A DNA stretch of 64,000 bases from a virus, in the IMG/VR virus record IMGVR_UViG_3300025168_000036; one strand, given 5' to 3'. Positions 10,410 to 63,776 of this stretch are shown here, in pieces (positions within the stretch are counted from its first letter, which is position 1; each line of letters opens with the position of its first letter). The notes beneath the pieces were generated by a model. It saw only the letters and a program-made list of their open reading frames with translations. It did not search any database and had not been told where the DNA came from. The translations under genes were made by a program, and so were the position numbers.

Positions 10410-10410
10410 A

Positions 10411-10480
10411 TATAAATATAATAAAAATAACGCAAGAAAAAAAATTTCTAACGTAAAATGCTAAAAAGTTATTAACAATT
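10411..10480 (-). repeat. Dispersed ~65-70 bp promoter-associated repeat, copy A
   Basis: Shares ACGCAAGAAAAAAAATTTCT, ACGTA and AAAGTTATTAACAAT (+ strand) with copies C and D. Confidence 0.8.
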
Positions 10481-11828: not shown

Positions 11829-13487
11829 TTACATCATTCCAAATCCACCACCCATTGGTTGGGCAGCTTCTTCTTCATTGTTATTTTCATTAATAATTAT
11901 ACACTCAGTTGTTAAAATTGTACCTGCAACTGAAACAGCTTTTTCTAATGCAACTCTTGTTACTTTTGCTGGATCAATAATACCAGATTTCATCATATCA
12001 ACAACTTGTTCTGTTCTTGCATCAAAGCCCATAGTAAAAGGTACAGAGTCTTCATCTGACATTCCATCAAATGCATGAATCTCATTCCAGATATTTGCTG
12101 CATCAAGGCCTGCATTTTTCATAATGATTTCAAATGGCTCTTGTACTGCTTCCATCACAATTCTATAGCCTGTAATTTGGTCCTCATTTTCAAATACATC
12201 ATCAACAACATCATCATCAAAGCAACTTCTTAGTGCAATTCCTCCACCAGGTACTATACCTTCATCAAGTGCAGCCCTAGTAGCATGTAATGCATCCTCA
12301 ACTCTGTCCTTCTTTTCCTTCATTTCAATTTCTGATTCAGCACCTATTTTAAGAATTGCTACACCTCCAGCCATCTTTCCAACTCTTTGCTGATATACTT
12401 CTTTTTCATAGTCTGAGTCTGATGTTTCAAGTAGTACCTTAATCTCGTTTACTCTATTTGCTATTGATTCTGGGTCACCTGCACCATCAACTATTGTTGT
12501 TGACTTTCCACTAACAGTTACTGTTTTTGCACTACCTGCAAAGTCTGATACATTAATAGTATCTAGTTTATGACCTTTATTCTTACTTATTACTGTTCCT
12601 CCAGTAATTGTTGCAATATCCTCAAGCAATTGAGTTCTCTTTTCACCAAATTCAGGTGCCTTTACTGCAGCAACCTTAAGTGTTCCCCTTGCCTTATTTA
12701 CAATAAGTCCAGCTAGTGCCTCGCCTTCAACATCATGAGCAACTATTAATAGTGGCTTGTCTTGTGCGATTGCAGCTTCTAATGGTTTTACTAACTCTTT
12801 AAGTGTTTGAATCTTTTTGTCAACCAATAATATCCATGGGTCTTCAAATTGTGCATGCATGTGATTATTATCTGTAACAAAGTATGGTGATATATAACCT
12901 CTATCAAATTGAACACCTTCTACTGTTTCAAGGTATGTATCATTTGTTCTAGACTCCTCTACTGTAATTACACCTTCTCTTCCTACTTTATCCATTGCAG
13001 TTGCAATTAACTTACCAACCTCAGCATCATTGTTTGCTGAAATTGTAGCCACCTGTTCTATTTCTTCTTGAGAAGAGATATCTGTTGCTATATCATCAAG
13101 CTTTTCTACTACTGAAGTTACCCCAATATCCATTCCCCTTTTTATATCAACTGGATTAGCCTTTAGTTCTGTGATACAATTAAAACCTCTTCTTAGTATT
13201 GAATTTGCTAATACAGTGGCTGTAGTTGTTCCATCACCTGCCTCATCGTTAACTTGATTTGCAACCTCTTTTACCATTTGTGCACCTGCATTTTCAACTT
13301 CATCTTCCAAAAATACTTCCTTTGCAACAGAAACACCATCTTTTGTTGATACAAACTCACCATTTTTTTCAAGAATTACATTTCTACCTTTAGGTCCTAA
13401 AGTTGCACTAACTGCTGTTGAAAGTTTTTGAACACCTTTTCCAATTAGGCTTCTTGCATCTTCGTTAAATTCAATTCTTTTCTTCAT
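11829..13487 (-). CDS. groEL: Chaperonin GroEL
   Basis: [50 protein letters not shown] tail. Confidence 0.97.
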
Positions 13488-13780
13488 TATTTTGTCTCCT
13501 TATAAATTGTTAAAATTTCATCTTCTCTACATACGATGAACTCTTCTCTATTAACTTCAAGTCTTTTAGCTGAAAATTTTGGATAGTATACTACATCGCC
13601 TACCTTACATTGCATATGACCTCTTTTTCCAGTATTTAGTAGTGGGCCGGGACCTACTGCTAATACTTCGCCTTTAAGTGATACTTCTGCATCAACTTCT
13701 GGCATAATTACTCCACCTGATGTCATTTCATCTGGTTCTAATCCTTTTAATACTACATTTCCTCCTGTTGGTGTAAACAT
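13487..13780 (-). CDS. groES: Co-chaperonin GroES
   Basis: TSGGVIMP mobile loop, GEVLAVGPG, KVGDVV, REDEIL. Confidence 0.92.
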   Translation of the reverse strand: MFTPTGGNVVLKGLEPDEMTSGGVIMPEVDAEVSLKGEVLAVGPGPLLNTGKRGHMQCKVGDVVYYPKFSAKRLEVNREEFIVCREDEILTIYKETK

Positions 13781-14499
13781 TATATTGCCTCCTTATCTTT
13801 AATTCTTAATTTATTTTCTATTTCATGTGAGCTTCTTACACATGATATTCCTAATTGGTCTTTCATTACTTCTGGTGTTGTGCAAGACTGGTTAAAGCTT
13901 GCAAAATCTGTTTTACTTGGGAACCTTCCACAACCTGCAAATAGACACCCAAATGCATTTGATAAATAATCTGCAGCTGCGTAGTCACACTTTCCTATTA
14001 AGTCACATCCTGGCTTGAAGCTTTTTGCAGCTTCAATTCCCATATCGATCATCTTCTCTCTTAATAGCCAATGTAAACCTACAATAAACTCTTCCTCGCA
14101 AAACTTAAGCCTTCTCATCATCTGTCCTCTAAGAGAATTAATATTTTGCTCAACTACGTATGTACATTCTCTTGACATTAAATTAAACAATTCAGGATTT
14201 TCGCTTTCAGATACTCTGTGCTTTTCCAGTTCAGATAGCGTTTTTATGGTTTTGTCGCGAAAGTCTGAGTTCTTCTCCATTAACTCATATACCTGAGTAT
14301 AAACCACATATGTTGGGTTTGGATTAACCTCATATTGCTTAAATTTAATTCCTACTCTAGCCCTTGAATGTTGATCATATTGGCAAATTGGTGTCCCTTT
14401 TACTCTATATGTTATCATACCAGAAGCCTGATGCCAATTCAAAATGTCTACTTCTAGACCTTTCACTCCACACTTTATTTCAATGTTATTAACTTTCAT
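13780..14499 (-). CDS. Divergent ThyX-fold protein B
   Basis: ITYRVKG..DQHSRARVG (RHR-like), NINSLRGQMMRRL, C-terminal PGC...GKC. Confidence 0.55.
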   Translation of the reverse strand: MKVNNIEIKCGVKGLEVDILNWHQASGMITYRVKGTPICQYDQHSRARVGIKFKQYEVNPNPTYVVYTQVYELMEKNSDFRDKTIKTLSELEKHRVSESENPELFNLMSRECTYVVEQNINSLRGQMMRRLKFCEEEFIVGLHWLLREKMIDMGIEAAKSFKPGCDLIGKCDYAAADYLSNAFGCLFAGCGRFPSKTDFASFNQSCTTPEVMKDQLGISCVRSSHEIENKLRIKDKEAI

Positions 14500-19821: not shown

Positions 19822-19825
19822 AGTA

Positions 19826-19893
19826 CTAATATAACAATTTTTATTGAAGTAAAAAAACTTTTTACGTATTATTTTTGAAAGTTATTAACAATT
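19826..19893 (-). repeat. Dispersed promoter-associated repeat, copy B (more diverged), directly upstream of dnaE-N
   Basis: TAATATAACAA...AAAAAAA...TACGTATTATTTTTGAAAGTTATTAACAATT on + strand. Confidence 0.7.
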
Positions 19894-22099: not shown

Positions 22100-22102
22100 A
22101 CT

Positions 22103-22114
22103 TTAATATAACAA
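22103..22114 (-). promoter_or_regulatory. Putative early/middle promoter element TT(G/A)TTATATT(A/T), representative copy heading the nucleotide cassette
   Basis: Same element, always just upstream of a gene, at 1194, 10413, 15325, 19826, 22103, 30612, 31658, 32057, 35807, 55476, 55925 and 63326. Confidence 0.7.
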
Positions 22115-23227: not shown

Positions 23228-24997
23228 TTATCCCTCACAGACAGCACACTCCTTCATGGCATTAGCAGCAATATCTCCTCTAAGAACACTTTCTGTTCTA
23301 AAATAATATAGAGTTTTTATACCTTGCTTCCAGGCTTCCAAGTGAACTTGATTAATCCACTTTGGTGTAGCCTCTTTTGGGAAAGCTAGATTAAGAGAGA
23401 CTGCTTGGTCAATATATTGTTGTCTAATACCACCCTGTCTTACTAGTTCTAATTGGTTAATTTCCTTAAAAGTTTTATAAACCTCTTTAACCGAAACTGG
23501 ATCATCTAACTCCGTTGAGTCACTACATAAAATTAACTTTCCATTTAAGTAGCACCACTTATCCAATTCTTTAATATCTTGCACACTTCCTCCATCTGCA
23601 AGTATTTTATCCCAAGTCTCTTTATTATTTATTCCTGCTTTTCTTAATACTTTTTCTAATTCTTTATTCTTTCTAATAAATGTACCTTTTGCACTTTGTT
23701 CTGTATATACATTTGCCGGTATTGGTTCAATTCCAGAACTAACACCACCAGCCAACTTTGAATTTGATACAGTTGGTGCAACTGCTCTTAGGTGTGTATT
23801 TCTCATTCCTGTTCCAACACACCATAGTGGTTCACCAAACTTTGTTGCAAGATCTCTTGATGCATGATCAGATTCAGTCTTTATTTGTCCAAATATTCTT
23901 CTTGTTTCAAATTGTGCAGGCAAACCTTCAAAAGGGATACCTTTTTGCTGTAGATATGTATGCCATCCTAACACACCTAGCCCTAATGCCCTACCTTTCT
24001 CTGCACTCCTCACTGAGTTTTCAAATCCTTGTCTATGCTTAGCCTTTTCAATAAACTCTTGCAAGACACCATCTAAGAACCAAGTTGCTGTATAGATTAG
24101 ATCTGTATCTTTCCATTCCTCATATTTTGATAGATTCAGTGAGCTTAGACAGCAAACAAAAGAGTGACTTTCATCTGTATGTAATACTATTTCACTACAT
24201 ATATTTGTCATATACACCTTTAGTGCATTCTTTTTATATGCCTCTGGGTTTTGTTTATTAACATTTCCTCTATACATTACATAAGGCTCACCAGTTTGTC
24301 TTCTCTTCTTAAGTAGGTTCATCCACTTTCTTCTAGATTCTGGATCTCCTGCCTCAAGGTTTCTCATAAACTTGTCACCAACAACTGCACACTGGTGCAT
24401 ATTAAGAGACTGTCTATTTACATCACCTTTTGGTTCTCTTATTTCTAGCCAATCATCAAAATCTGGATGTTCGATATTTAGATTAACACTAGCTGCACCT
24501 CTTCTTACTGCACCTTGATTTGTTGCAAGTATTGTAGAGTCATATATCTTACAAAACGGAACAACTCCATCACTGGTTCCATTACCTGATATTTTTGCTC
24601 CAGCTGGTCTTATTTGGTTTATTCCTATACCTACACCTCCACCATGTTTTGCTAGCAACATCATTTCCAGATTCTTTCTACCAATATCAACAATACTATC
24701 TGCTACATCTATTCCAAAGCAGCTAATTGGCAGTCCTCTTTCTAGGCCTGTGTTACTTAGTACTGGACTAGCTAAACATAGCCAACCTTTCCATATATAG
24801 TCAAAGAATTTTGTTGCCAACTCAGGTCTATCTAACCTTTTTGCTACCGTTGTACATACTCTCCAGTATGCATCTTTAGGCTTCTCTCCATTATACAGAT
24901 ATCCATTGGATATTGTTTGTACATATACTTGATTATTTGCCCAACTTGGGAAGTCTACATCTATTTCCCAACCTAAGTGTTCTGCGTGATTTTTCAT
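23228..24997 (-). CDS. nrdA: Ribonucleotide reductase class I alpha subunit (no N-terminal ATP cone)
   Basis: PISCF, GGGVG, TNICSEI, VCCLSS, APTVSNS, KTLYY, C-terminal CAVCEG. Confidence 0.95.
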   Translation of the reverse strand: MKNHAEHLGWEIDVDFPSWANNQVYVQTISNGYLYNGEKPKDAYWRVCTTVAKRLDRPELATKFFDYIWKGWLCLASPVLSNTGLERGLPISCFGIDVADSIVDIGRKNLEMMLLAKHGGGVGIGINQIRPAGAKISGNGTSDGVVPFCKIYDSTILATNQGAVRRGAASVNLNIEHPDFDDWLEIREPKGDVNRQSLNMHQCAVVGDKFMRNLEAGDPESRRKWMNLLKKRRQTGEPYVMYRGNVNKQNPEAYKKNALKVYMTNICSEIVLHTDESHSFVCCLSSLNLSKYEEWKDTDLIYTATWFLDGVLQEFIEKAKHRQGFENSVRSAEKGRALGLGVLGWHTYLQQKGIPFEGLPAQFETRRIFGQIKTESDHASRDLATKFGEPLWCVGTGMRNTHLRAVAPTVSNSKLAGGVSSGIEPIPANVYTEQSAKGTFIRKNKELEKVLRKAGINNKETWDKILADGGSVQDIKELDKWCYLNGKLILCSDSTELDDPVSVKEVYKTFKEINQLELVRQGGIRQQYIDQAVSLNLAFPKEATPKWINQVHLEAWKQGIKTLYYFRTESVLRGDIAANAMKECAVCEG

Positions 24998-25011
24998 TTA
25001 TAACTCTCCTC

Positions 25012-26004
25012 TTAAAATATTTCATCCCAATTATCATCTTCACCGGCTTTGCTATAATCAGTAGGCCTAATACTAAAAAAGTCAGTATGAGTATGGCCAC
25101 CAGTAAGATGATAGAACCAATCCAGATTGCTGGCTTGCTTTTCATTAACTGTGAAAATTTGTTCATATCCTAGCTCCTTTAATTTATCATTTGTTCTTTG
25201 TTTAATAAACTCCTTTAAGTCTGATGCTGATAAATTCTCCAAGTCACCCATTTCAAACATTTTATCTATAAACTTTTCTTCCAAATCAACAATAAGCCTT
25301 GCAGCTTCTAGTATTGACTCCTTAGATTGCTCTCTTAATTCTGGAAATTCATCACACGTATGATTAAATAGTTGGCAACCCATTCTACTATGTAGAGATT
25401 CATCTCTTACACTCCATTTCATTTGTTGACCTACACCTTTTAGCATGTTTCTCATCTGAAAGCTATATAGTACTGCAAATGAACTATATAAGCTTACACC
25501 TTCTGCAAATGCGGAGAAGATTGCCAAACTTTTTGCAACTTCCTTTCTAGCATCTGGTGAAGTTGCTAAGTCTTCGTGAGTATAATCACCACCAGTATTC
25601 ATTAGTAGATCAAACTTATCTGCAGTTGCAGGTTCATGTAAAAATGCCTCAAAATCTTCTAAGCCTAGTGTTTCGTTTAAGTAGCTATATGCAACTGCAT
25701 GTATTGTCTCTTGTGAACCAAACATCATTGCCATTTGCCTTATCTCATGCTTTGGATACCATTTAGTAACCATATTTGTCCAATAGTCAGAAACTGCACA
25801 CTCAGTTTGTGCAAACCCTAAAAGTATATTTCCAACTAAATTTTTTTCTGCTGGTGAAAGATTTTCTTTCCAGTCTTTTACATCACCTTGCATTGCTATT
25901 TCTGTATGCAACCAAAATGCTTGTGCCTGTTTAAGCCAACCCTCTGTATAATATATAGGGTATTCAAAAGGCTTAAAAGGCACTCTTTCCTCAAAAAGCG
26001 CCAT
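25012..26004 (-). CDS. nrdB: Ribonucleotide reductase class I beta subunit
   Basis: FWLHTE, ETIHAVAY, EGVSLYSSF, RDESLH, DFF..RPTDY. Confidence 0.95.
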   Translation of the reverse strand: MALFEERVPFKPFEYPIYYTEGWLKQAQAFWLHTEIAMQGDVKDWKENLSPAEKNLVGNILLGFAQTECAVSDYWTNMVTKWYPKHEIRQMAMMFGSQETIHAVAYSYLNETLGLEDFEAFLHEPATADKFDLLMNTGGDYTHEDLATSPDARKEVAKSLAIFSAFAEGVSLYSSFAVLYSFQMRNMLKGVGQQMKWSVRDESLHSRMGCQLFNHTCDEFPELREQSKESILEAARLIVDLEEKFIDKMFEMGDLENLSASDLKEFIKQRTNDKLKELGYEQIFTVNEKQASNLDWFYHLTGGHTHTDFFSIRPTDYSKAGEDDNWDEIF

Positions 26005-26059
26005 ATTATTCTCCGTTTATTTTTATTTTTGTATCTATAAATATCATTATATATGTATA

Positions 26060-29623: not shown

Positions 29624-30382
29624 TTAGTTTTTGTCATTAAATAAGTCATCAAATGCATCACCAATATCATCTTTCTTTTCAACACCTGCAGGTGCAGCAG
29701 CTACTTGTGCTGGTTGAGAAGATTCCTCTTCGCCTCCATCAAGCCAAGTTTGTAGTGCAGCCTTCATTGTATCATAGTCTACTTTTTTATAGATATCAAA
29801 GATGTCTTGTTGACCATTCATGATCTTATCAGCAATGTTTTTATCTTCAGTTGCTGGTGTCTGATTTGGTTTTACCATGATAGTAGTCTTAGGGAACCTT
29901 TCAGCTCCTTCAGCTGGATGAAAAGTCACCACTACATCTCTACCACTATTAACATCTGTGATGTCACCATAGTCAGGATCAGCTATAAATTGTAATAACT
30001 CTTGGTAAACAGTTTTACCAAATCCCCATAGCTTTACACCTTCTGATTCTGCACCTCTTACCAATACTGGTAGATAACATCTCATTTTAGGTTCCATTTT
30101 CTTTCCTAATTTCCAATCATCTCTATTACCCGATGATTTTAGTTTCTCAGAAAATTCTACTACTGGGTCAGTTTCACCAAATGTTACTGGTGATAAATAG
30201 TTTTTCTTTCCTAAGTCATAATGAAAATACATTTCTATGAATGGATTATCTTTATTAAATTGGTAAGGTACTATTCTTACTTGGTTTTTGCCTGGATCAG
30301 GCTTCCAAAGATTATTTGTTCTAGTCGTTTGACTTTGTAAATTGTTGAGCTTAGCTCGGATTGCATTTAGATCAATTGCCAT
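29624..30382 (-). CDS. gp32-like single-stranded DNA-binding protein
   Basis: WKP...VRIVP, LWGFGK, DYGDITD..GRD, acidic tail DDIGDAFDDLF. Confidence 0.85.
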   Translation of the reverse strand: MAIDLNAIRAKLNNLQSQTTRTNNLWKPDPGKNQVRIVPYQFNKDNPFIEMYFHYDLGKKNYLSPVTFGETDPVVEFSEKLKSSGNRDDWKLGKKMEPKMRCYLPVLVRGAESEGVKLWGFGKTVYQELLQFIADPDYGDITDVNSGRDVVVTFHPAEGAERFPKTTIMVKPNQTPATEDKNIADKIMNGQQDIFDIYKKVDYDTMKAALQTWLDGGEEESSQPAQVAAAPAGVEKKDDIGDAFDDLFNDKN

Positions 30383-30398
30383 TTTCTTCTCCTTTTAA

Positions 30399-30572
30399 TT
30401 ATTTATTATTTTTAATTTCTTGCACATTTAATCTTAACTCTTGTGCTTGAGCCTTTAGTTCTTGCATTGCCTTTCTAATTCTTGTTCCTGCTGACATATT
30501 TCCATTATTGAATTTGTCAACATCTGTTAGAATGTTAGTTAGGGTCGCTTGGATGTTTTCTGTTGAAACCAT
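30399..30572 (-). CDS. Histone H1-like Hc1-family protein (57 aa, below ORF-track cutoff)
   Basis: Hand translation MVSTENIQATLTNILTDVDKFNNGNMSAGTRIRKAMQELKAQAQELRLNVQEIKNNK with the GN.SAGTR.RK signature; AGGAGA SD. Confidence 0.8.
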   Translation of the reverse strand: MVSTENIQATLTNILTDVDKFNNGNMSAGTRIRKAMQELKAQAQELRLNVQEIKNNK

Positions 30573-30631
30573 GTTTTTCTCCTGTTTTTGTTATTAATTA
30601 TTGATTATTGTTTAATATAATAAAAATTTCC

Positions 30632-31654: not shown

Positions 31655-31677
31655 AGTTTAATATAATAAATTTTTAT

Positions 31678-32022: not shown

Positions 32023-32056
32023 AATACAGTTTTTATTTGTTATTTTTTAATTATTA

Positions 32057-32123
32057 TTAATATAATAAATTTTACGCAAGAAAAAAAATTTCTAACGTAT
32101 TATTTTAGAAAGTTATTAACAAT
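32057..32123 (-). repeat. Dispersed promoter-associated repeat, copy C
   Basis: TTAATATAATAAATTTTACGCAAGAAAAAAAATTTCTAACGTATTATTTTAGAAAGTTATTAACAAT on + strand. Confidence 0.85.
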
Positions 32124-35800: not shown

Positions 35801-35838
35801 ACAGTCTTAATATAATAAAAAAAGCTTAAATAAAAAAA

Positions 35839-46828: not shown

Positions 46829-47317
46829 TTAGTATTGTAAGATTGCGTAGTCGTAAGCTAGTTCCAATGATATATTGATTGGGTCATCTGTTGCCCATTC
46901 CAAGTCACCGAATGTTGCGTTAACTGGAAAAGCACCTTTCAATGTCCATTCCTCAACCTTATCACCTACAGGTCCAAGTACATTAATAGTTACATCTTTC
47001 TTATAAAAGTCTGCATATCCTGCTCTACCTGTTACTGATTCATATCCTAGTCTAACCCATTCCATCACTGCCTGAGCACCTGAAGGTACTACTGGATCAT
47101 ACATTTCTATTGTTACGTTTTCCCATGTAGCCTTACCTTGAATCTTTCTTTTTGTATTAATGTGATCTAGTTCCTTTGCTTCAATTGCAATTGTTGGTCT
47201 GTTAACCTTCTTGCAAATAAAACTTGGGACACCATCAACATATAGTACAAACCTATTTGATGTTTTAGGTTGGAATGCTGTGAACATTAGTTCATTAGGG
47301 TCTATTACTTGAGCCAT
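46829..47317 (-). CDS. Tail tube protein (gp19-like)
   Basis: PKTSNRF, GKATW, YKKD, EEWTLKGAFP, LAYDYA. Confidence 0.9.
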   Translation of the reverse strand: MAQVIDPNELMFTAFQPKTSNRFVLYVDGVPSFICKKVNRPTIAIEAKELDHINTKRKIQGKATWENVTIEMYDPVVPSGAQAVMEWVRLGYESVTGRAGYADFYKKDVTINVLGPVGDKVEEWTLKGAFPVNATFGDLEWATDDPINISLELAYDYAILQY

Positions 47318-47335
47318 ATTTTATCTCCTCTTTAA

Positions 47336-47345
47336 TATAAATATC
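47336..47345 (-). promoter_or_regulatory. Putative late promoter (G)ATATTTATA, representative copy before the tail tube gene
   Basis: Sense-strand TATTTATA at 7743, 26036, 34771, 45367, 46533, 47336, 49223, 52128, 54980 and 59850, mostly before virion genes. Confidence 0.7.
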
Positions 47346-47347
47346 TG

Positions 47348-49159
47348 TTATTCACCAAAAGTTGCACCAGTTGGTAATACGTTAAAGTCAATTACTATAA
47401 ATTCTGCAGCCTTAGCCGGTTGTAAGAATATTTCACCTTTTAAGATGTTTCTGTCAATTACATCAGGTGTGTTATTTGATTCATCCATTACAACTCTAAA
47501 GGCAAACAAACCTTGTTTCGTTTGTACATCTGCCATATAAGGATTAACAGCTGATAAGAACCTATTTCTAGTTGCAGCAGTATTATTTTCAAATACTAAG
47601 AATCTAGATGTAGATGCAATAAACTTCTTAAGTCTAATTAATAGTCTTCTAACATTTACACGATCAAGTGCAGATGCTTTTCTTTGTAGTGTCTTTTGTC
47701 CCCAAGCACATACACCTTGTCCAGGGAATGTTGCAATAGGATTAATACCTTTTTCGTATAATGTATCTCTGTCTGAATGTGGTAGCTTTCTTTCAGCTTG
47801 TATAGCAGAATCAAGTCCACCTCTATTCAAACCTGCAGGAGCAAACCATTCGTGAGCAACTTGGTCATTGAATGCAAATACACCTGCCATTAAAGTAGAT
47901 GCCGGCACCCATACTAATTGATTAGTTGAACTATCATTTGTTAAACACCATGGGTAGTACATTGCACCATAAGATGAATCAAAATTATCACCTTGAGTTG
48001 CAGCAGTAGCTACATTTTGATCCCATTTTACAGGATCAAGAATTGCCATACAATCACCTCTTTCCTCACATGAGTTAAGAATTTGAGTTGCTAATGCACT
48101 ATGTTCACCTGCAAGAACACCTGGTACTAATAACATATTAATATCATAATCATCTGCATTACCCATTAAAAGTATTGCTGAATATAATTCATCGCATGAT
48201 GTTAATGTAGAATAGTCATATCCTTGAACGTTTGTTGAATCAATAGTTTCATGCCAATTTGCTACTACATTGTTTGGCCCAGCACTTCCATCACTTCCTC
48301 CAGTAAATGAACCTGACCAAACTCCTCCAGTAACAACCCTTGTAGGTAGTGAACCAGTAGCTGAGTTTAATCTTATGCTTCCATCTTCTAATAAATAGTT
48401 TGGTGTTGCAAAATCTACAGACTTTATTCTAATATATTTAGATTTGTTTGGATACTTACCTGTTGTCTTAACATATCTTGTATTGCCTGATCCAGCAATA
48501 GTGTGGGTTTGATTTCCAATAACTCTTTCAATGTAGTTGGTAGAATTAGGATCTAGATTAACTCCATTCCATGATTCTAAAGCAACCTTTCTCTTTTTAG
48601 AGTCATCACCTCGCCTAATAGTTAGTGTAAATGTACCTTTTGTGTCATTAACAGAACTAACTTCTAGTCTTAAATTATCTTTATCACCTGCTCCAGTTAA
48701 TACATGGTTTGAAATAGACCCTGAACTGGTTTGTAATACACCGTGTGATAGTGTTTCTGTAGTAAATGATGCAGTTATTAATGCTTGGACTGCATAGTTG
48801 TTTAGGGCAGTACCTGCATTTATTGATGCAGAAACTGGTACCTTACATGTTGCAGCAGTATAACTACCTGATAACATTCTAACTACAGTTAGTGCACTTC
48901 CATTCTTTAAATATTCTTTTGCAGCAGTATTTGTTAAATATGAATAATTTTTTGTGTCTGCATCGGAACTACCTGATGATACCACGTCTCCAAAAATTTG
49001 AACATATTCACTATAATTTGACACCATTGTAGGTGCCATCGCAGGCCCCTTAGCTGTTGGCCCAATAACAGCAGCACCAATCTCACCTACAGCTTGTGGT
49101 AAGAATGATAAATCTTTTTCCGAGGTAAATACACCTGGTGATACAATTTTCTCAGCCAT
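47348..49159 (-). CDS. Tail sheath protein (gp18-like)
   Basis: SPGVFTSEKD, WFAPAGLNRG, INPI, WGQKTL, RVNVRRL, FENN, AEFI. Confidence 0.95.
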   Translation of the reverse strand: MAEKIVSPGVFTSEKDLSFLPQAVGEIGAAVIGPTAKGPAMAPTMVSNYSEYVQIFGDVVSSGSSDADTKNYSYLTNTAAKEYLKNGSALTVVRMLSGSYTAATCKVPVSASINAGTALNNYAVQALITASFTTETLSHGVLQTSSGSISNHVLTGAGDKDNLRLEVSSVNDTKGTFTLTIRRGDDSKKRKVALESWNGVNLDPNSTNYIERVIGNQTHTIAGSGNTRYVKTTGKYPNKSKYIRIKSVDFATPNYLLEDGSIRLNSATGSLPTRVVTGGVWSGSFTGGSDGSAGPNNVVANWHETIDSTNVQGYDYSTLTSCDELYSAILLMGNADDYDINMLLVPGVLAGEHSALATQILNSCEERGDCMAILDPVKWDQNVATAATQGDNFDSSYGAMYYPWCLTNDSSTNQLVWVPASTLMAGVFAFNDQVAHEWFAPAGLNRGGLDSAIQAERKLPHSDRDTLYEKGINPIATFPGQGVCAWGQKTLQRKASALDRVNVRRLLIRLKKFIASTSRFLVFENNTAATRNRFLSAVNPYMADVQTKQGLFAFRVVMDESNNTPDVIDRNILKGEIFLQPAKAAEFIVIDFNVLPTGATFGE

Positions 49160-49249
49160 TTATTTCTCTCCTATCTCTTGTTTTGATATAATATCCAATA
49201 CGTTTATGTATTCTATTCGTTATATAAATATCAGATTAAAACTGTAAAA

Positions 49250-52239: not shown

Positions 52240-53877
52240 TTAAATAGTGTTTAATCCAGATACATTAATCTTACCGTAGAATTCTGGTCTTACAACTTTC
52301 TTAGCATACCTAGTCATTACACCTTTTCTTGGAGTAAAGTTAGTTGGATCGTATACTAGTGGAGTCATAATTAATGGAATATAAGGAGCATAAACTGCAC
52401 CAGTTTCCAAGAATTGAGTACCACGGAATCCCATAATAATCTCATTTGATTGCATGTAAGGGTTTTTGTAAACTGTAAATCTGTTAGCTAAGCTACCGAT
52501 TTTAGTTACGCCCATTGCAAATGATTGTTGAGCACCATCTGTATCAACACCGAATCCAGAAATAGATTCTAACACAGTAGAAACCTCAGGTCCACATACT
52601 AAGAAGTTAGCACCACCACGCATTGTTTTTGCATGAATTTTGTTACTTACTTTTTGTACTTTTGTACCTAATGTTGCAAACCATGAAGTTTGTTGATAAG
52701 CATATTGTGAACCAACAGCAGAAAATGCAGTTCCAGCAGCATTTAATGCCTGTCCGTCTGCATGCCATGAATCAGTTGTGTTTGCATTTGCAGATAACAT
52801 ACCTAAGATTTCTAAATCTATTTCCATAGAAATATATTCAGATAACATAGATGTTAATTCAGCCTCAGCATCAATTGAGTGATAAGCATTTAAGTCTTGA
52901 GCAAATTCTGGAGTCCAGATTACTTTTAACTTTCTTGTCTTAGCTACAATTGCCTCAGATCTTAATTCAACATTTACTTCAGGAATATTCAAGTCTGTTG
53001 CAGTTCCAGCAGCATAAGATGTAGGATCTTTATCCTCAAAATCACCTCTTGACTGGTCATTAGCATTCTTGATTACAAATGAAGTCTTGATTTGACCTAA
53101 TCCAAAAGTATCAGCCCATGTTGGTAGTTCAGCAGCAGTTTCACCGATGAAAGTTACAACACCTGCAGCAGTAGCAGTAGTAAACTGTGGATATACTTTA
53201 AAGTCAGATGCAGAAACTTGGAAAGCTTGTGCAGCCTGTTCATCAAGATTAGTGTTTTCAGTTGTAATTACAACCTTCTTTAATCTCTTAGCAGTAACTA
53301 AAGTTTCTAAACTAGAATCAAAGTTAACATCAGCTAAAGAAGCAGTAGATGCTGCAGTTAAAGCGTCAGCTACACCTGTAGATGCAGATCTGTTAGTTGA
53401 ATATCCGAACTTTCCAGAACCATAAAGGCCTCCAGAAGGATCAACATTTTTGGTATCTGTAGTACCCATTATTTTATCACCAGTAGCTACTGTGTGAGTG
53501 TTAGCGGCAGTTCCGCCTACGCCTGAATCAGACCCATATTTGAAGTCTAGGAAAAATACTAGACCTGATGGTAGATTCATTGGTTGTACGCTTACAAAAT
53601 CTTTTGCAGCAATTTCACCGAAAATTCTTCTTACTAGTGGAAGTGCAACTCCTGACCATTCTTCTTTACTACCACCTGTACCGGTAGCATTAGCTTCTTG
53701 GATCAATTGTCTTGCTTGATTTTCTAAAAGAATAGCAGTATTATGTTTTTCATACTCTGCATCGATTCCTTCTAAAAGACCAGTTTTTTCCCACTTATTT
53801 ACATAAGCTTTAGTTTCAGCAATTTGTTGCCTATAAGTATTTTGAGCGTCGTTAAGTAAATTACTTACGTTTGACAT
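52240..53877 (-). CDS. Major capsid protein (T4 gp23-like)
   Basis: KWEKTGLL, LLENQ, VQPMNLPSGL, AKTRKLK, AQDL.AYH..DAEAEL, YAPYIPL, GVMTRY. Confidence 0.96.
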   Translation of the reverse strand: MSNVSNLLNDAQNTYRQQIAETKAYVNKWEKTGLLEGIDAEYEKHNTAILLENQARQLIQEANATGTGGSKEEWSGVALPLVRRIFGEIAAKDFVSVQPMNLPSGLVFFLDFKYGSDSGVGGTAANTHTVATGDKIMGTTDTKNVDPSGGLYGSGKFGYSTNRSASTGVADALTAASTASLADVNFDSSLETLVTAKRLKKVVITTENTNLDEQAAQAFQVSASDFKVYPQFTTATAAGVVTFIGETAAELPTWADTFGLGQIKTSFVIKNANDQSRGDFEDKDPTSYAAGTATDLNIPEVNVELRSEAIVAKTRKLKVIWTPEFAQDLNAYHSIDAEAELTSMLSEYISMEIDLEILGMLSANANTTDSWHADGQALNAAGTAFSAVGSQYAYQQTSWFATLGTKVQKVSNKIHAKTMRGGANFLVCGPEVSTVLESISGFGVDTDGAQQSFAMGVTKIGSLANRFTVYKNPYMQSNEIIMGFRGTQFLETGAVYAPYIPLIMTPLVYDPTNFTPRKGVMTRYAKKVVRPEFYGKINVSGLNTI

Positions 53878-53894
53878 TTTTGTCTCCTAATTTT

Positions 53895-54854
53895 TTATAG
53901 TAAACCTGCCAACTTCTTCATTCTAGATGAAAAGTTGTTAGATTCAACAATTACGTTTTTATTTGGTTTAGTCGAATTAACGGCTTTTGAAGCAAAACCT
54001 TCAGTTACTGATCTCTTCTTAGTTGGTTTGTATCCAGTTAAAGATTCTGCTAAAGTAGTGTATACTAATTTAACTTCTCTTACTGAACCTGCCCTATCGA
54101 AAGTTTCAATAATTTTCATTTTTTGTGATTCATTTAGACCGTTACTTCTAAATAGTTTGTTTGAGAATAAAAGTTTTGCATTCAACAAATTAACTTCATT
54201 GATCTTATCTTTTAGGAACTTAATAGTTTTGTAAGCTTCTTTAAGATCTTCATCTTTTTCAGTTTCATTTGTAGGCTCATCTTCGTCCTCATCTTCTTCT
54301 TGAAGTGCTTTAATTACCTCGTCTAAATCTATCTCTGTATCATCAGATGGTTCATCATCTTCAGTTTCGTCCATTGGTTTTTCATCAGAATCTTCAGTTT
54401 CAGTCACAGGTTCTTCATCATCACTGTGGTCTTCATCTTCAGTTTCCATTTCTTCACCATCGTCTTCTAATTCTTTAATGATTGATTCAAGTTCTAAGTC
54501 GTCTTCATCTTCAGTTTCATACATGTCATCATCTTCAGTTTCATGTATTTCTTCATCAGTGTCTTCACCACCTTCTGATTCATCTTCACCTACTTCGTTG
54601 TATGCTTCTTCAGTTTCATCAGCCTGACCTAAGTCGGTTGAGTCATCTGCGTCCATTTCAACAGTAGCTTCTGGAGTATCAGCTAGTTCTTCTTCATCAT
54701 CAAAATCTTCAGATTCTTCAGCGATCTTTTGAGATAACATAGATTGTAGTCTAGGGGTAAAAGCCTCTTCTAAAGCTAGTTTAGCATTCGCAATTGCAGT
54801 TTCTCTAACTGCTTTCGCATCAGCTATAGCTTCTTTTAACAAGTTTTTTGACAT
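53895..54854 (-). CDS. Prohead core/scaffold protein (gp22-like), highly acidic
   Basis: Directly upstream of MCP; repeated ETED units; ends RMKKLAGLL. Confidence 0.8.
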   Translation of the reverse strand: MSKNLLKEAIADAKAVRETAIANAKLALEEAFTPRLQSMLSQKIAEESEDFDDEEELADTPEATVEMDADDSTDLGQADETEEAYNEVGEDESEGGEDTDEEIHETEDDDMYETEDEDDLELESIIKELEDDGEEMETEDEDHSDDEEPVTETEDSDEKPMDETEDDEPSDDTEIDLDEVIKALQEEDEDEDEPTNETEKDEDLKEAYKTIKFLKDKINEVNLLNAKLLFSNKLFRSNGLNESQKMKIIETFDRAGSVREVKLVYTTLAESLTGYKPTKKRSVTEGFASKAVNSTKPNKNVIVESNNFSSRMKKLAGLL

Positions 54855-55026
54855 TTTGTGTCTCCTCTTAATTTATGTTTAGGAAGTATAGCTATTAGGA
54901 GCTATAATAGAATTTATTTTAATACGTTTGCAATGTATCTAGTTATCACATGCGTTTTTACGTATAATTGTTAATCGAATATAAATATATATAGATATAT
55001 AAAAAGTATCGTTTTTCTAAAACTTT

Positions 55027-55475: not shown

Positions 55476-55544
55476 TAAATATAAACAAAAATACGCAAGA
55501 AAAAAAATTTCTCACGTATTATTTTTAGAAAGTTATTAACAATT
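55476..55544 (-). repeat. Dispersed promoter-associated repeat, copy D
   Basis: ACGCAAGAAAAAAAATTTCTCACGTATTATTTTTAGAAAGTTATTAACAATT on + strand. Confidence 0.85.
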
Positions 55545-55549
55545 AGTTG

Positions 55550-55894
55550 TTAAACAGCCTTACCATCTCTAATTACAGTCCATATATGGTTCTTATCATG
55601 CCTCTTTTGTCTTGCAGTCTCTCTCTTTTGCATGGCTTTGGCATAGTCCATCTTTTTAACTCTTTTTGCAGAATTACCTTCAAAGTATCTCCTTTCCTTA
55701 TACTCATCTAGCTTCCCTGAGTCCTTTATTTGTCTCTTAAATATTTTAAGGGCCTTTTCTAGGTCTCCTGGTGTTGAACCTGGAACCTTAACTCCTCCTG
55801 GTACTCCTGGTATAATAAAGTCTGAACGCTTCCTATAATTTTTAATTGGCCTTCCAGACCTATCTCTTGGTGTATGCTTTCTTTTATCTGACAT
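55550..55894 (-). CDS. rpsU: Ribosomal protein bS21 homolog with N- and C-terminal extensions
   Basis: VKV...DLEKALKIFKRQIKDSGKLDEYKERRYFEGNSAKR matches the bS21 core pattern (AL..FKR...G...E...R.FYEKPS). Confidence 0.8.
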   Translation of the reverse strand: MSDKRKHTPRDRSGRPIKNYRKRSDFIIPGVPGGVKVPGSTPGDLEKALKIFKRQIKDSGKLDEYKERRYFEGNSAKRVKKMDYAKAMQKRETARQKRHDKNHIWTVIRDGKAV

Positions 55895-55957
55895 AAATGT
55901 TTTTTTTGTATTAATTAATTGTATATAATATAAACAATTTCTGCTTAATAAAAAAAT

Positions 55958-56560
55958 TTATTTAATATTTTTTTTCATCCAAGAGTTTACGTATTGCATT
56001 AGCTCTTTCTGGGCAGGTTTAATGTCACCTTTCTCTGTCATAGGACCATTTTTCCAGTCTAACCAACCATCTTTAATTAACATTAAGCCTTCATCAAGAT
56101 CTCTCATGATTTCAATGTATTCTTCTGTAATTGTAGTCTTCTGTGTGTTCCATTCAAGAATTTTATTTTCCTGCATTTGCTTTAATAAGTTAGCCTCATC
56201 ACCTTTACGCCATGTGTTTCCTAACTTACCACCACCACCAATTCTTAATTGGCCATACTTAGCATAAATAGTATATTTTCTTCCATCAACATTAATAATT
56301 GCAGAATCAGAATACTTTTCTTTCATTGAACCTAATACATCTCTAACCTTATTCTTTTTAAGCCACTTCATAGCTATGTCATGGCCTTTTTTATCAAAGG
56401 TATAATTTAATGATGTTCCAACCTGGTCGCCTTTATCAAGCTTAACAGCTTCATCCTTTCTTTTAGGATTCAATACTGGATTCCATCTCATCTTTTTTAA
56501 TTTTGAAGAAGGTAGCTCACCTAAGTATGCATGTTCTTTTAATATATCTTTAAGTTTCAT
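55958..56560 (-). CDS. Putative internal head protein
   Basis: N-terminal MKLKDILKE; located in the head cluster. Confidence 0.55.
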   Translation of the reverse strand: MKLKDILKEHAYLGELPSSKLKKMRWNPVLNPKRKDEAVKLDKGDQVGTSLNYTFDKKGHDIAMKWLKKNKVRDVLGSMKEKYSDSAIINVDGRKYTIYAKYGQLRIGGGGKLGNTWRKGDEANLLKQMQENKILEWNTQKTTITEEYIEIMRDLDEGLMLIKDGWLDWKNGPMTEKGDIKPAQKELMQYVNSWMKKNIK

Positions 56561-63365: not shown

Positions 63366-63764
63366 TTACTTTTTAGCTCTTTTTTCAAGTGATCTACCAC
63401 CAAAATAAGCACCAATAACTGTTATAAGTACCAATTGTAATAAGTCTGTCCACTTTTCTTCTACTACGAACTTAATAGAACCTGCATCAATAAATATCAT
63501 TAATACAGTACATACAACTAAAAATATTAACACTAATGGTCTTACATTTTTTGATAACCATGAATCAGAATTCATATCTGCAGACCAACGATCTGTAATG
63601 TTTTGCTCCATCTTTGCTTCATGGTTGGCAATTAATTCTTTCATCTTTCTTTTTGCTTCTAGCTTCTCTTCCTTAGATGTTGTTAGGTTATCTAGCACTC
63701 CACCTACACCTTTAACTAACTCATTAGCTCCTGAGCTAAATATTTTGCCTAAAATTCCTGACAT
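63366..63764 (-). CDS. Holin (GTA 3TM-holin-like)
   Basis: DSWLSKNVRP, hydrophobic helices, YFGGRSLEK. Confidence 0.75.
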   Translation of the reverse strand: MSGILGKIFSSGANELVKGVGGVLDNLTTSKEEKLEAKRKMKELIANHEAKMEQNITDRWSADMNSDSWLSKNVRPLVLIFLVVCTVLMIFIDAGSIKFVVEEKWTDLLQLVLITVIGAYFGGRSLEKRAKK

Positions 63765-63776
63765 AACTTCTCCTTT

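Follow-up and report, generated by a model that had tools for sequence, protein, structure and literature searches.

A complete virus record in IMG/VR (145,441 bp with terminal repeats, 34% GC) represents a marine T4-like phage that carries an apparent one-gene cassette for the ribosomal protein bS21 within its head-gene block. The bS21 gene has no Shine-Dalgarno (SD) site amid SD-led head genes, its product lacks the tyrosine found in nearly all sampled Bacteroidia bS21 sequences, two T9SS cargo genes point to a Bacteroidota host, and SD sites accompany bS21 in nearly all assessable relatives. This co-occurrence suggests that the phage protein re-tunes host ribosomes toward phage messages. 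As a tentative explanation, which we regard as a real possibility, we propose that the re-engineered bS21 of this clade turns SD-blind host ribosomes into SD-reading ones, which would amount to translational takeover by the unmasking of a dormant rRNA element. Positions below are those of the analysed stretch of 64,000 nucleotides (the window) unless a genome coordinate is given.

Phage-encoded bS21 is the commonest viral ribosomal protein, and to our knowledge nobody has demonstrated what a phage bS21 does. Bacteroidia keep a perfect anti-SD that is hidden and used for essentially one gene. Their ribosomes are reported to be SD-blind, with bS21, bS18 and bS6 holding the 16S 3' tail in a pocket (PMC7797042, PMC9976891, PMC13000457), and Cellulophaga phages have been reported to lack SD sites (preprint, bioRxiv 10.1101/2021.04.21.440840).

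A bS21 gene in the head-gene block

The preliminary description had placed a bS21 gene in the head cluster, which is borne out by both profile scores and gene order.

55550-55894, (-) strand: bS21 gene, a 114-aa open reading frame recognized by Pfam PF01165, TIGR00030, family alignments and an AF2 model

The product matches Pfam Ribosomal_S21 (PF01165) at E=6e-9 and 35.9 bits (cut-off 27) and NCBIfam TIGR00030 at 29.6 bits (cut-off 28.95), and its best PDB sequence matches are all bS21 chains. It is laid out as a basic N-terminal extension (residues 1 to ~33), the S21 core (~34-97) and a 30-aa basic tail that ends in IWTxIxDGKA, the Trp being invariant in alignments of the family. The N-terminal extension carries a family motif that approximates to PRDRSGxPIKNYRKRxDFIIPG; both extensions are phage-specific and conserved in the family, and the start codon is backed by the conserved N-termini of 28 homologues. 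An AF2 model built from the family alignment predicts helices at residues 42-67 and 74-102 (mean pLDDT 81) and thereby reproduces the expected two-helix bS21 fold. A Foldseek search of this model against the PDB returned nothing significant, an outcome that carries no information given how small and extended the protein is.

Protein searches yielded 29 relatives of 98-124 aa with 50-99% identity, all of them metagenomic and some from Tara, and an exhaustive search of 1.84 billion cluster representatives gave only 65 clusters at E<=1e-3 (44-145 aa, save three much longer proteins). Because tblastn of the phage bS21 against 50,697 phage records gave no match at E<=1e-3, annotated relatives were found through the major capsid protein (MCP). 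The phage genome encodes no detectable bS18 or bS6 homologue.

The gene lies between the prohead protease/head-cargo genes and the MCP gene, inside a TerL-portal-protease-MCP block. This location, together with the very basic character of the protein and its conserved phage-specific extensions, would be compatible with a bS21 derivative that has left the ribosome and serves as a virion or nucleic-acid-binding protein. We consider this very improbable, as the S21 core is kept and scores above curated cut-offs, the protein has no MKLxDILxE-type head-targeting tag, unlike its neighbour, and the gene has its own non-late promoter-like motif and terminator.

Leader, promoter-like element and terminator-like hairpin

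Three elements flank the bS21 reading frame.

55895-55925, (-) strand: bS21 leader, 31 nt, A/U-rich, no SD core, A run from -6 to -13
55926-55960, (-) strand: promoter-like 'class E' element from a motif census, a AAATTTTTTTATTAAGCAGAAA tract followed by TTGTTTATATTA; putative promoter
55490-55520, (-) strand: terminator-like hairpin, 13-bp stem followed by a T-rich run, 30 nt past the bS21 stop, fold z=-4.9

The leader had been described as A-rich and SD-free, and it does read ...AATACAAAAAAAACATTT-ATG, with GGAG, GAGG and AGGA all absent from -20 to -4. Folding predicts next to no structure in it (MFE -0.6 kcal/mol, no more stable than shuffled sequences), and its -3 position is T, not the favoured A. 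It is not unique in the genome, where about 100 other genes are also SD-less.

The TTGTTTATATTA motif at 55937-55926 (-) is one of 16 similar class E sites. Others precede the N-terminal part of DnaE, UvdE, a PolA-like gene, a sulfotransferase, TerL and some small genes, and a near-identical copy stands before the gene at 107544-107933, beyond the window, in an SD-poor block. The virion genes instead lie behind ATATTTATAT motifs that resemble T4 late promoters. A motif at 55925 had been labelled early-type in the preliminary description; the motif is present and is shared with replication and repair genes and TerL, but we do not endorse the word 'early'. Genes are not preferentially preceded by TAnnTTTG, the -7 box of Bacteroidota sigma-A (88 coding-strand vs 158 other-strand sites), so no promoter class of this phage can be demonstrated to be host-type, and we describe the bS21 element as non-late and shared with replication genes. 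A scan for the sigma-70 consensus around the bS21 gene stayed at shuffle level. We infer from sequence that the class E and late motifs act as promoters, and likewise when they would fire. With a promoter-like element on one side and a terminator-like hairpin on the other, bS21 appears to form a one-gene cassette within the head-gene block.

Several further features of this region were recorded. A repeated cassette, consisting of TTGTTAATAACTTT, a hairpin ACGTGAGAAA-T8-CTTGCG and then a promoter-like motif, occurs at window positions 55478-55552, ~32030-32120, ~19840-19890 and ~10410-10480 (-), and resembles the promoter-early stem-loop repeats of other T4-like phages. The neighbour upstream of bS21 (55958-56560, (-) strand) starts with MKLKDILKE, a T4-like head-targeting tag; at the corresponding position, phage immuto encodes a 75-aa homologue of the C-terminal part of this neighbour. 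A TTGTTATATTA/TTATTATATTA motif ends 4-7 nt before the ATG of six genes, at 1190-1204, 19822-19836, 22100-22113, 31655-31669 and 35801-35818 (-) in the window and at one site beyond it; the genes are the sulfotransferase, the N-terminal part of DnaE, an unknown gene, UvdE, the PolA-like gene and the one outside the window. Should TATATT function as a -10 box, these six mRNAs would be leaderless and would form a third class of SD-independent starts.

SD sites in the phage genome

The preliminary description had contrasted the bS21 leader with AGGAG-led genes for MCP, scaffold, sheath, tube, chaperone, holin, gp32, GroEL, NrdA and Hc1. Family searches and leaders agree with that list, the scaffold role being a likely one given position and composition, and the holin match falling just below its cut-off.

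52240-53888, (-) strand: MCP gene, AGGAG 6 nt before ATG, identified by tblastn to annotated capsid genes
53895-54866, (-) strand: acidic scaffold-like gene, AGGAG 7 nt before ATG, with no family match in a Pfam search
46829-49172, (-) strand: region of the tail tube (46829-47317) and tail sheath (47348-49159) genes, identified by Pfam, AGGAG-led and with late-type ATATTTATAT motifs
11829-13793, (-) strand: region of GroEL (11829-13487) and GroES (13487-13780), with AGGAG and AGGAGG leaders
23228-26018, (-) strand: NrdA (AGGAG-led) and NrdB (GGAG-led), from family searches and leaders
29624-30585, (-) strand: gp32-like ssDNA-binding protein and Hc1 histone-like protein, both AGGAG-led
63366-63776, (-) strand: holin-like gene with three TM segments, AGGAG-led, Pfam 24.3 bits (cut-off 24.8)

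Nearly all phage genes lie on one strand. With gene starts taken from a simple longest-ORF caller, an SD core precedes 75 of 178 genes (42%) vs 13.7% of random windows, and the consensus is aAGGAGa. Within the 60 nt before called starts, 38 of 50 AGGAG copies are spaced 6-8 nt from the ATG. AGGAG was also considered as a transcription signal and rejected, because its spacing from the ATG stays within 6-8 nt, whereas the promoter-like motifs lie anywhere from 14 to 124 nt away. The sites are unevenly distributed: the first 50 genes in transcription order, which we call the early block on presumed timing, are at background (10/50), and the remainder are enriched (65/128; Fisher p=1.8e-4). The bS21 gene is thus an SD-less island amid SD-led head genes.

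The host

The host, which the preliminary description had left to be identified, can be approached through gene content. The product of the gene at G000:18995-19963 (coordinates of the phage genome, G000) combines a signal peptide and D-T-I sequon-rich repeats with a T9SS tail of type B (TIGR04131, 42.3 bits vs 35; CHU_C, 60 bits vs 27). A second cargo, a 976-aa protein encoded outside the window at G000:C1:~139900-142834, has a type A tail (Por_Secre_tail, 48.7 bits), and a relative with a 60% MCP match (G001) has a 1083-aa counterpart (L212) that also bears a type A T9SS tail. The two cargo tails indicate that the host belongs to the Bacteroidota. CHU_C scores above its cut-off in 40 of 41 sampled class Bacteroidia genomes, at up to 110 bits, and reaches 39 bits at most in Rhodothermia. 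Type B matches at E<=1e-10 were found in 9 of 41 genomes of a phylum-wide sample, all nine with Bacteroidia-type bS21, and in none of ten Rhodothermia genomes and one Ignavibacteria genome. The host is therefore probably a member of the class Bacteroidia, an assignment made from gene content. A CHU_C search in four relatives and in Microcystis phage Mel-JY01 gave nothing above the cut-off, so this tail type does not mark the clade as a whole. The only tRNA of the genome, tRNA-Arg(TCT) at G000:C1:18883-18957 outside the window, lies directly upstream of the type B cargo gene.

A different reading is that the host uses SD sites normally, being either a T9SS-bearing member of a lineage outside Bacteroidia (Ignavibacteria, Kapabacteria, Marinimicrobia) or, for phages like Mel-JY01, a cyanobacterium; a switch would then be superfluous, with bS21 serving as a generic auxiliary gene. 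Ignavibacteria, with 52-55% identity, are among the best cellular matches of the phage GroEL. An SD core is present in cellular groEL leaders of 7/7 Ignavibacteria, of Kapabacteria and Marinimicrobia and of 15/17 Gammaproteobacteria, as it is in the phage groEL leader, but in 0/26 leaders from Bacteroidia, Flavobacteriia, Saprospiria and Chitinophagia; the phage groEL, led by AGGAG, is unlike these. Mel-JY01 is moreover recorded on Microcystis. The GroEL identities, however, differ by only a few percent between phyla and favour the FCB group weakly (52-55% vs 51-53% for Gammaproteobacteria). Strong type B tails were found only alongside Bacteroidia-type bS21, and the presumed early genes sit at SD background, which would be unexpected if naive ribosomes relied on SD sites. 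Sister phages encode a bS21 with the Bacteroidia signature Tyr54, and the nearest bS21-less clade contains a cultured Flavobacterium phage. On this evidence we judge an SD-reading host to be distinctly unlikely.

The C-terminus of the phage bS21

The C-terminus was aligned with the Tyr54 region of Bacteroidia bS21, as the preliminary description had proposed, using rpsU sequences fetched from 61 class Bacteroidia genomes, a single Ignavibacteria genome and a single Rhodothermales genome. Residue 54 is Tyr in 31 of 32 Bacteroidia bS21 sequences, whose tails measure 10-14 aa and carry a net charge of -2 to +3. Ala87 of the phage protein aligns with Tyr54, the aromatic residue that stacks on A1534 in anti-SD-sequestering bS21. 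Across the phage family this position is Ala or Arg in 26 of 28 members, Asp in one and unalignable in one shortened member, with no aromatic residue in any of the 28; the tails are 30 aa long with a net charge of +3 to +8 (+6 in this phage). Trp105, the sole conserved aromatic residue of the phage tail, lies 18 residues beyond position 54.

It had been proposed that this divergent C-terminus frees the anti-SD. The divergence itself is clear, but the SD-using relatives L049, L031, L086 and L071 have Tyr54 or Phe54, short tails and SD-led neighbouring genes. Loss of Tyr54 thus cannot be the general mechanism, and the notion that it alone explains SD reading was rejected. Other candidate sites for any effect of the phage bS21 are the N-terminal extension, which is shared, and the altered first helix.

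Several host rpsU genes are preceded by an extended AGGAGGT, the opposite of the SD-less phage bS21 leader. About one quarter of the sampled Bacteroidia rpsU genes have an extended AAGGAGGT leader (L179, L180, L184, L186, L189, L190, L199), which fits the published autoregulation through an extended SD on the gene's own mRNA, a feature of many Flavobacteriales. Position 54 is Arg in one class Bacteroidia genome (L197) and His in L228.

Occurrence of bS21 and SD sites among relatives

The MCP of the phage is 52-53% identical to those of Flavobacterium phage immuto and Mel-JY01. The cultured phage immuto, with a complete genome, has SD sites before 1 of 26 genes and no bS21 anywhere in its genome, and Mel-JY01 has rpsU in the same head-module position together with SD-like leaders. 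Most relatives are contig fragments; a locus was scored for bS21 only if its sequence extended at least ~3 kb upstream of the MCP gene. Among the 80 closest IMG/VR MCP loci, 67 have a detectable bS21 1.3-2.8 kb upstream of the MCP gene, and the SD fractions of these loci range from 0.29 to 1.0; the MCP leader contains an SD core in 49 of 49 distinct bS21-bearing relatives. SD fractions are 0-0.08 in the bS21-less loci L068, L079 and L087, whose records were searched throughout without finding a bS21. A second scan seeded with an immuto-like MCP gave 80 loci, none with bS21, and 41 of the 42 assessable ones are SD-poor. The remaining one, L250, was considered as an SD user without bS21 and rejected, its MCP and most of its genes being SD-less and its four matches falling in one tightly packed gene run. 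Rhodothermus phage RM378 has neither bS21 nor SD sites.

In total, among ~115 assessable T4-like relatives, 66 of the 67 with bS21 are SD-rich and one is SD-poor, vs 46 SD-poor and one borderline among the 47 without it. The exception is LR756508, a 484-kb phage with bS21 in the same place and SD sites before only 4 of 29 genes. In the MCP tree these counts yield a single independent contrast if only well-supported branches are used and three if all are, which puts significance out of reach, and the association may rest on a single gain or loss.

The genome-wide pattern recurs in G001, which has the long-form bS21, an SD-free block and SD sites elsewhere; in G003, whose bS21 is of the Tyr54 type, the signals are weak and AGGA-like. 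Among long-form and Tyr54-type relatives, ~24 of 25 have no SD site before bS21 but do have one before the adjacent MCP gene. In the Mel-JY01-like short-form subclade the bS21 leaders mostly contain AAGGA or GAGG.

Two observations concern individual relatives. Many starts in L209 (LR756508.1 159961-185517) are preceded at ~8-12 nt by a CTGAGA/TGAGA-like motif, possibly another initiation signal. Mel-JY01 (L003, PP395634.1), recorded on Microcystis, nests among phages with Bacteroidota signals; its bS21 is short and basic, and AAGGA stands in the leader of that gene. Whether the recorded host is right, or the phage truly jumped hosts, merits re-examination.

A possible switch in ribosome specificity

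In the proposed switch, phage bS21 would be expressed through a non-late promoter of its own, with a leader that is A-rich, unstructured and SD-less, and ordinary SD-ignoring host ribosomes should be able to translate its mRNA for that very reason. The protein would then take the bS21 site on the platform of host 30S subunits, next to the anti-SD, which would no longer be hidden. On such ribosomes the AGGAG-led mRNAs of the middle and late phage genes would be favoured, and SD-less mRNAs of the host would be translated less well. We infer the timing of expression, the entry into ribosomes, the release of the anti-SD and the effect on translation from the genomic pattern. In F. johnsoniae, ribosomes that lack bS21 or carry pocket mutations have a freed 3' tail, are more active on SD mRNAs and less active on SD-less ones (PMC9976891, PMC13000457), which makes the mechanism put forward in the preliminary description plausible; several of its premises also held up in analyses that could have contradicted them. 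In addition, bS21 is loosely bound and exchanges easily (PMC9578407), and a pelagiphage bS21 enters E. coli ribosomes according to a citation in PMC9723584.

The same F. johnsoniae studies allow another account, in which SD-led phage mRNAs are read by ribosomes that simply lack bS21, for example after host shut-off, bS21 being loosely bound. The phage bS21 would then do another job, either sustaining SD-less early or host-type translation or maintaining ribosomes once host rpsU is silenced. Ribosomes without bS21 form a sizeable pool in wild-type F. johnsoniae, and it is this pool that acts on SD mRNA; bS21, when bound, clashes with an extended SD helix (PMC13000457), and McNutt et al. speculated on phage factors that aid bS21 exchange (PMC9976891). 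This account explains neither why SD sites track the presence of bS21 nor the loss of Tyr54 and the acquisition of a long basic tail in the family; no protease or other bS21-removing factor was identified in the genome, nor, as noted above, a homologue of bS18 or bS6. We regard it as conceivable but unlikely.

Phage bS21 and the idea that it substitutes for the host protein are already published. Freshwater Bacteroidetes phages (Chen et al. 2022, ISME Commun, PMC9723584) and huge phages (Al-Shayeb et al. 2020, PMC7162821) likewise carry bS21 in a TerL-portal-prohead protease-MCP head module, and for the former, which share a Bacteroidota host with the phage described here (probable in our case), substitution of host bS21 was proposed to favour phage mRNAs. 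Those proteins differ from the present family, with Ala or Arg, in retaining an aromatic residue, Tyr or another, at or near position 54, and a host-like function that blocks the anti-SD was inferred for them. Their bS21 gene lies on the reverse strand, whereas ours is co-oriented with its neighbours and has its own promoter-like motif and terminator, and the ~33-aa basic N-terminal extension and 30-aa basic tail with a conserved Trp motif set the present protein apart. Chen et al. (PMC9723584) did not discuss a link to SD-led phage genes, and our literature search, which did not extend to subscription journals, found no paper that makes one.

Substitution of this ordinary kind could also apply here: phage bS21 would replace that of the host and either bias translation through features other than SD sites or behave like the host protein, with SD sites a separate trait of the lineage. 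It would agree with the host-like, anti-SD-blocking function inferred by Chen et al. (PMC9723584), with the Tyr54-type bS21 of SD-using relatives, with LR756508, which has bS21 but lacks SD sites, and with an association that is not significant once phylogeny is counted. What it does not explain is the position-locked AGGAG in phages of SD-blind hosts, its absence from every assessable bS21-less relative and the missing blocking signature in the bS21 family of this phage. We rate ordinary substitution, too, as an outside chance rather than a probable one.

Three other systems bear on the proposed change of ribosome specificity. The autoregulation of bS21/rpsU in F. johnsoniae (Jha 2021, PMC7797042; McNutt 2023, PMC9976891; Arpin 2026, PMC13000457) involves the same ribosomal site and the same logic of a hidden or free anti-SD. 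There, however, the switch is the presence or absence of one protein and rpsU is the only SD-led gene, whereas our proposal invokes a second, altered bS21 whose gene is SD-less while dozens of other phage genes are SD-led. No phage bS21 other than that of Pelagibacter phage HTVC008M (Mizuno et al. 2019, PMC6375957), also a marine T4-like phage of similar size, has been shown to enter ribosomes, in this case ribosomes of E. coli. HTVC008M infects an alphaproteobacterium, and identity between its MCP and that of our phage is only ~33% across 59% of the length; the phage collection in which our bS21 found no match at E<=1e-3 by tblastn includes HTVC008M. In Francisella tularensis, alternative bS21 paralogues give heterogeneous ribosomes with altered mRNA choice (PMC9578407); these are cellular paralogues in an SD-using gammaproteobacterium, and viral takeover is not involved.

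If the proposed switch operates, it would explain both the carriage of bS21 and the presence of textbook SD sites in phages of SD-ignoring hosts, and it would be a clean case of a virus reprogramming ribosome specificity by swapping one protein. Even without a causal link, the finding that SD sites occur only in bS21-bearing relatives, apart from the one borderline locus, is a new and easily extended genomic rule that also bears on gene calling for such phages.

A further feature of the phage SD sites concerns their length. The base after GGAG is A in 38 of 57 sites and G in only 6 of 57, so the helix with the anti-SD would be short and shifted toward the 16S 3' end. This may matter, given that long SD helices clash with bound bS21 in F. 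johnsoniae.
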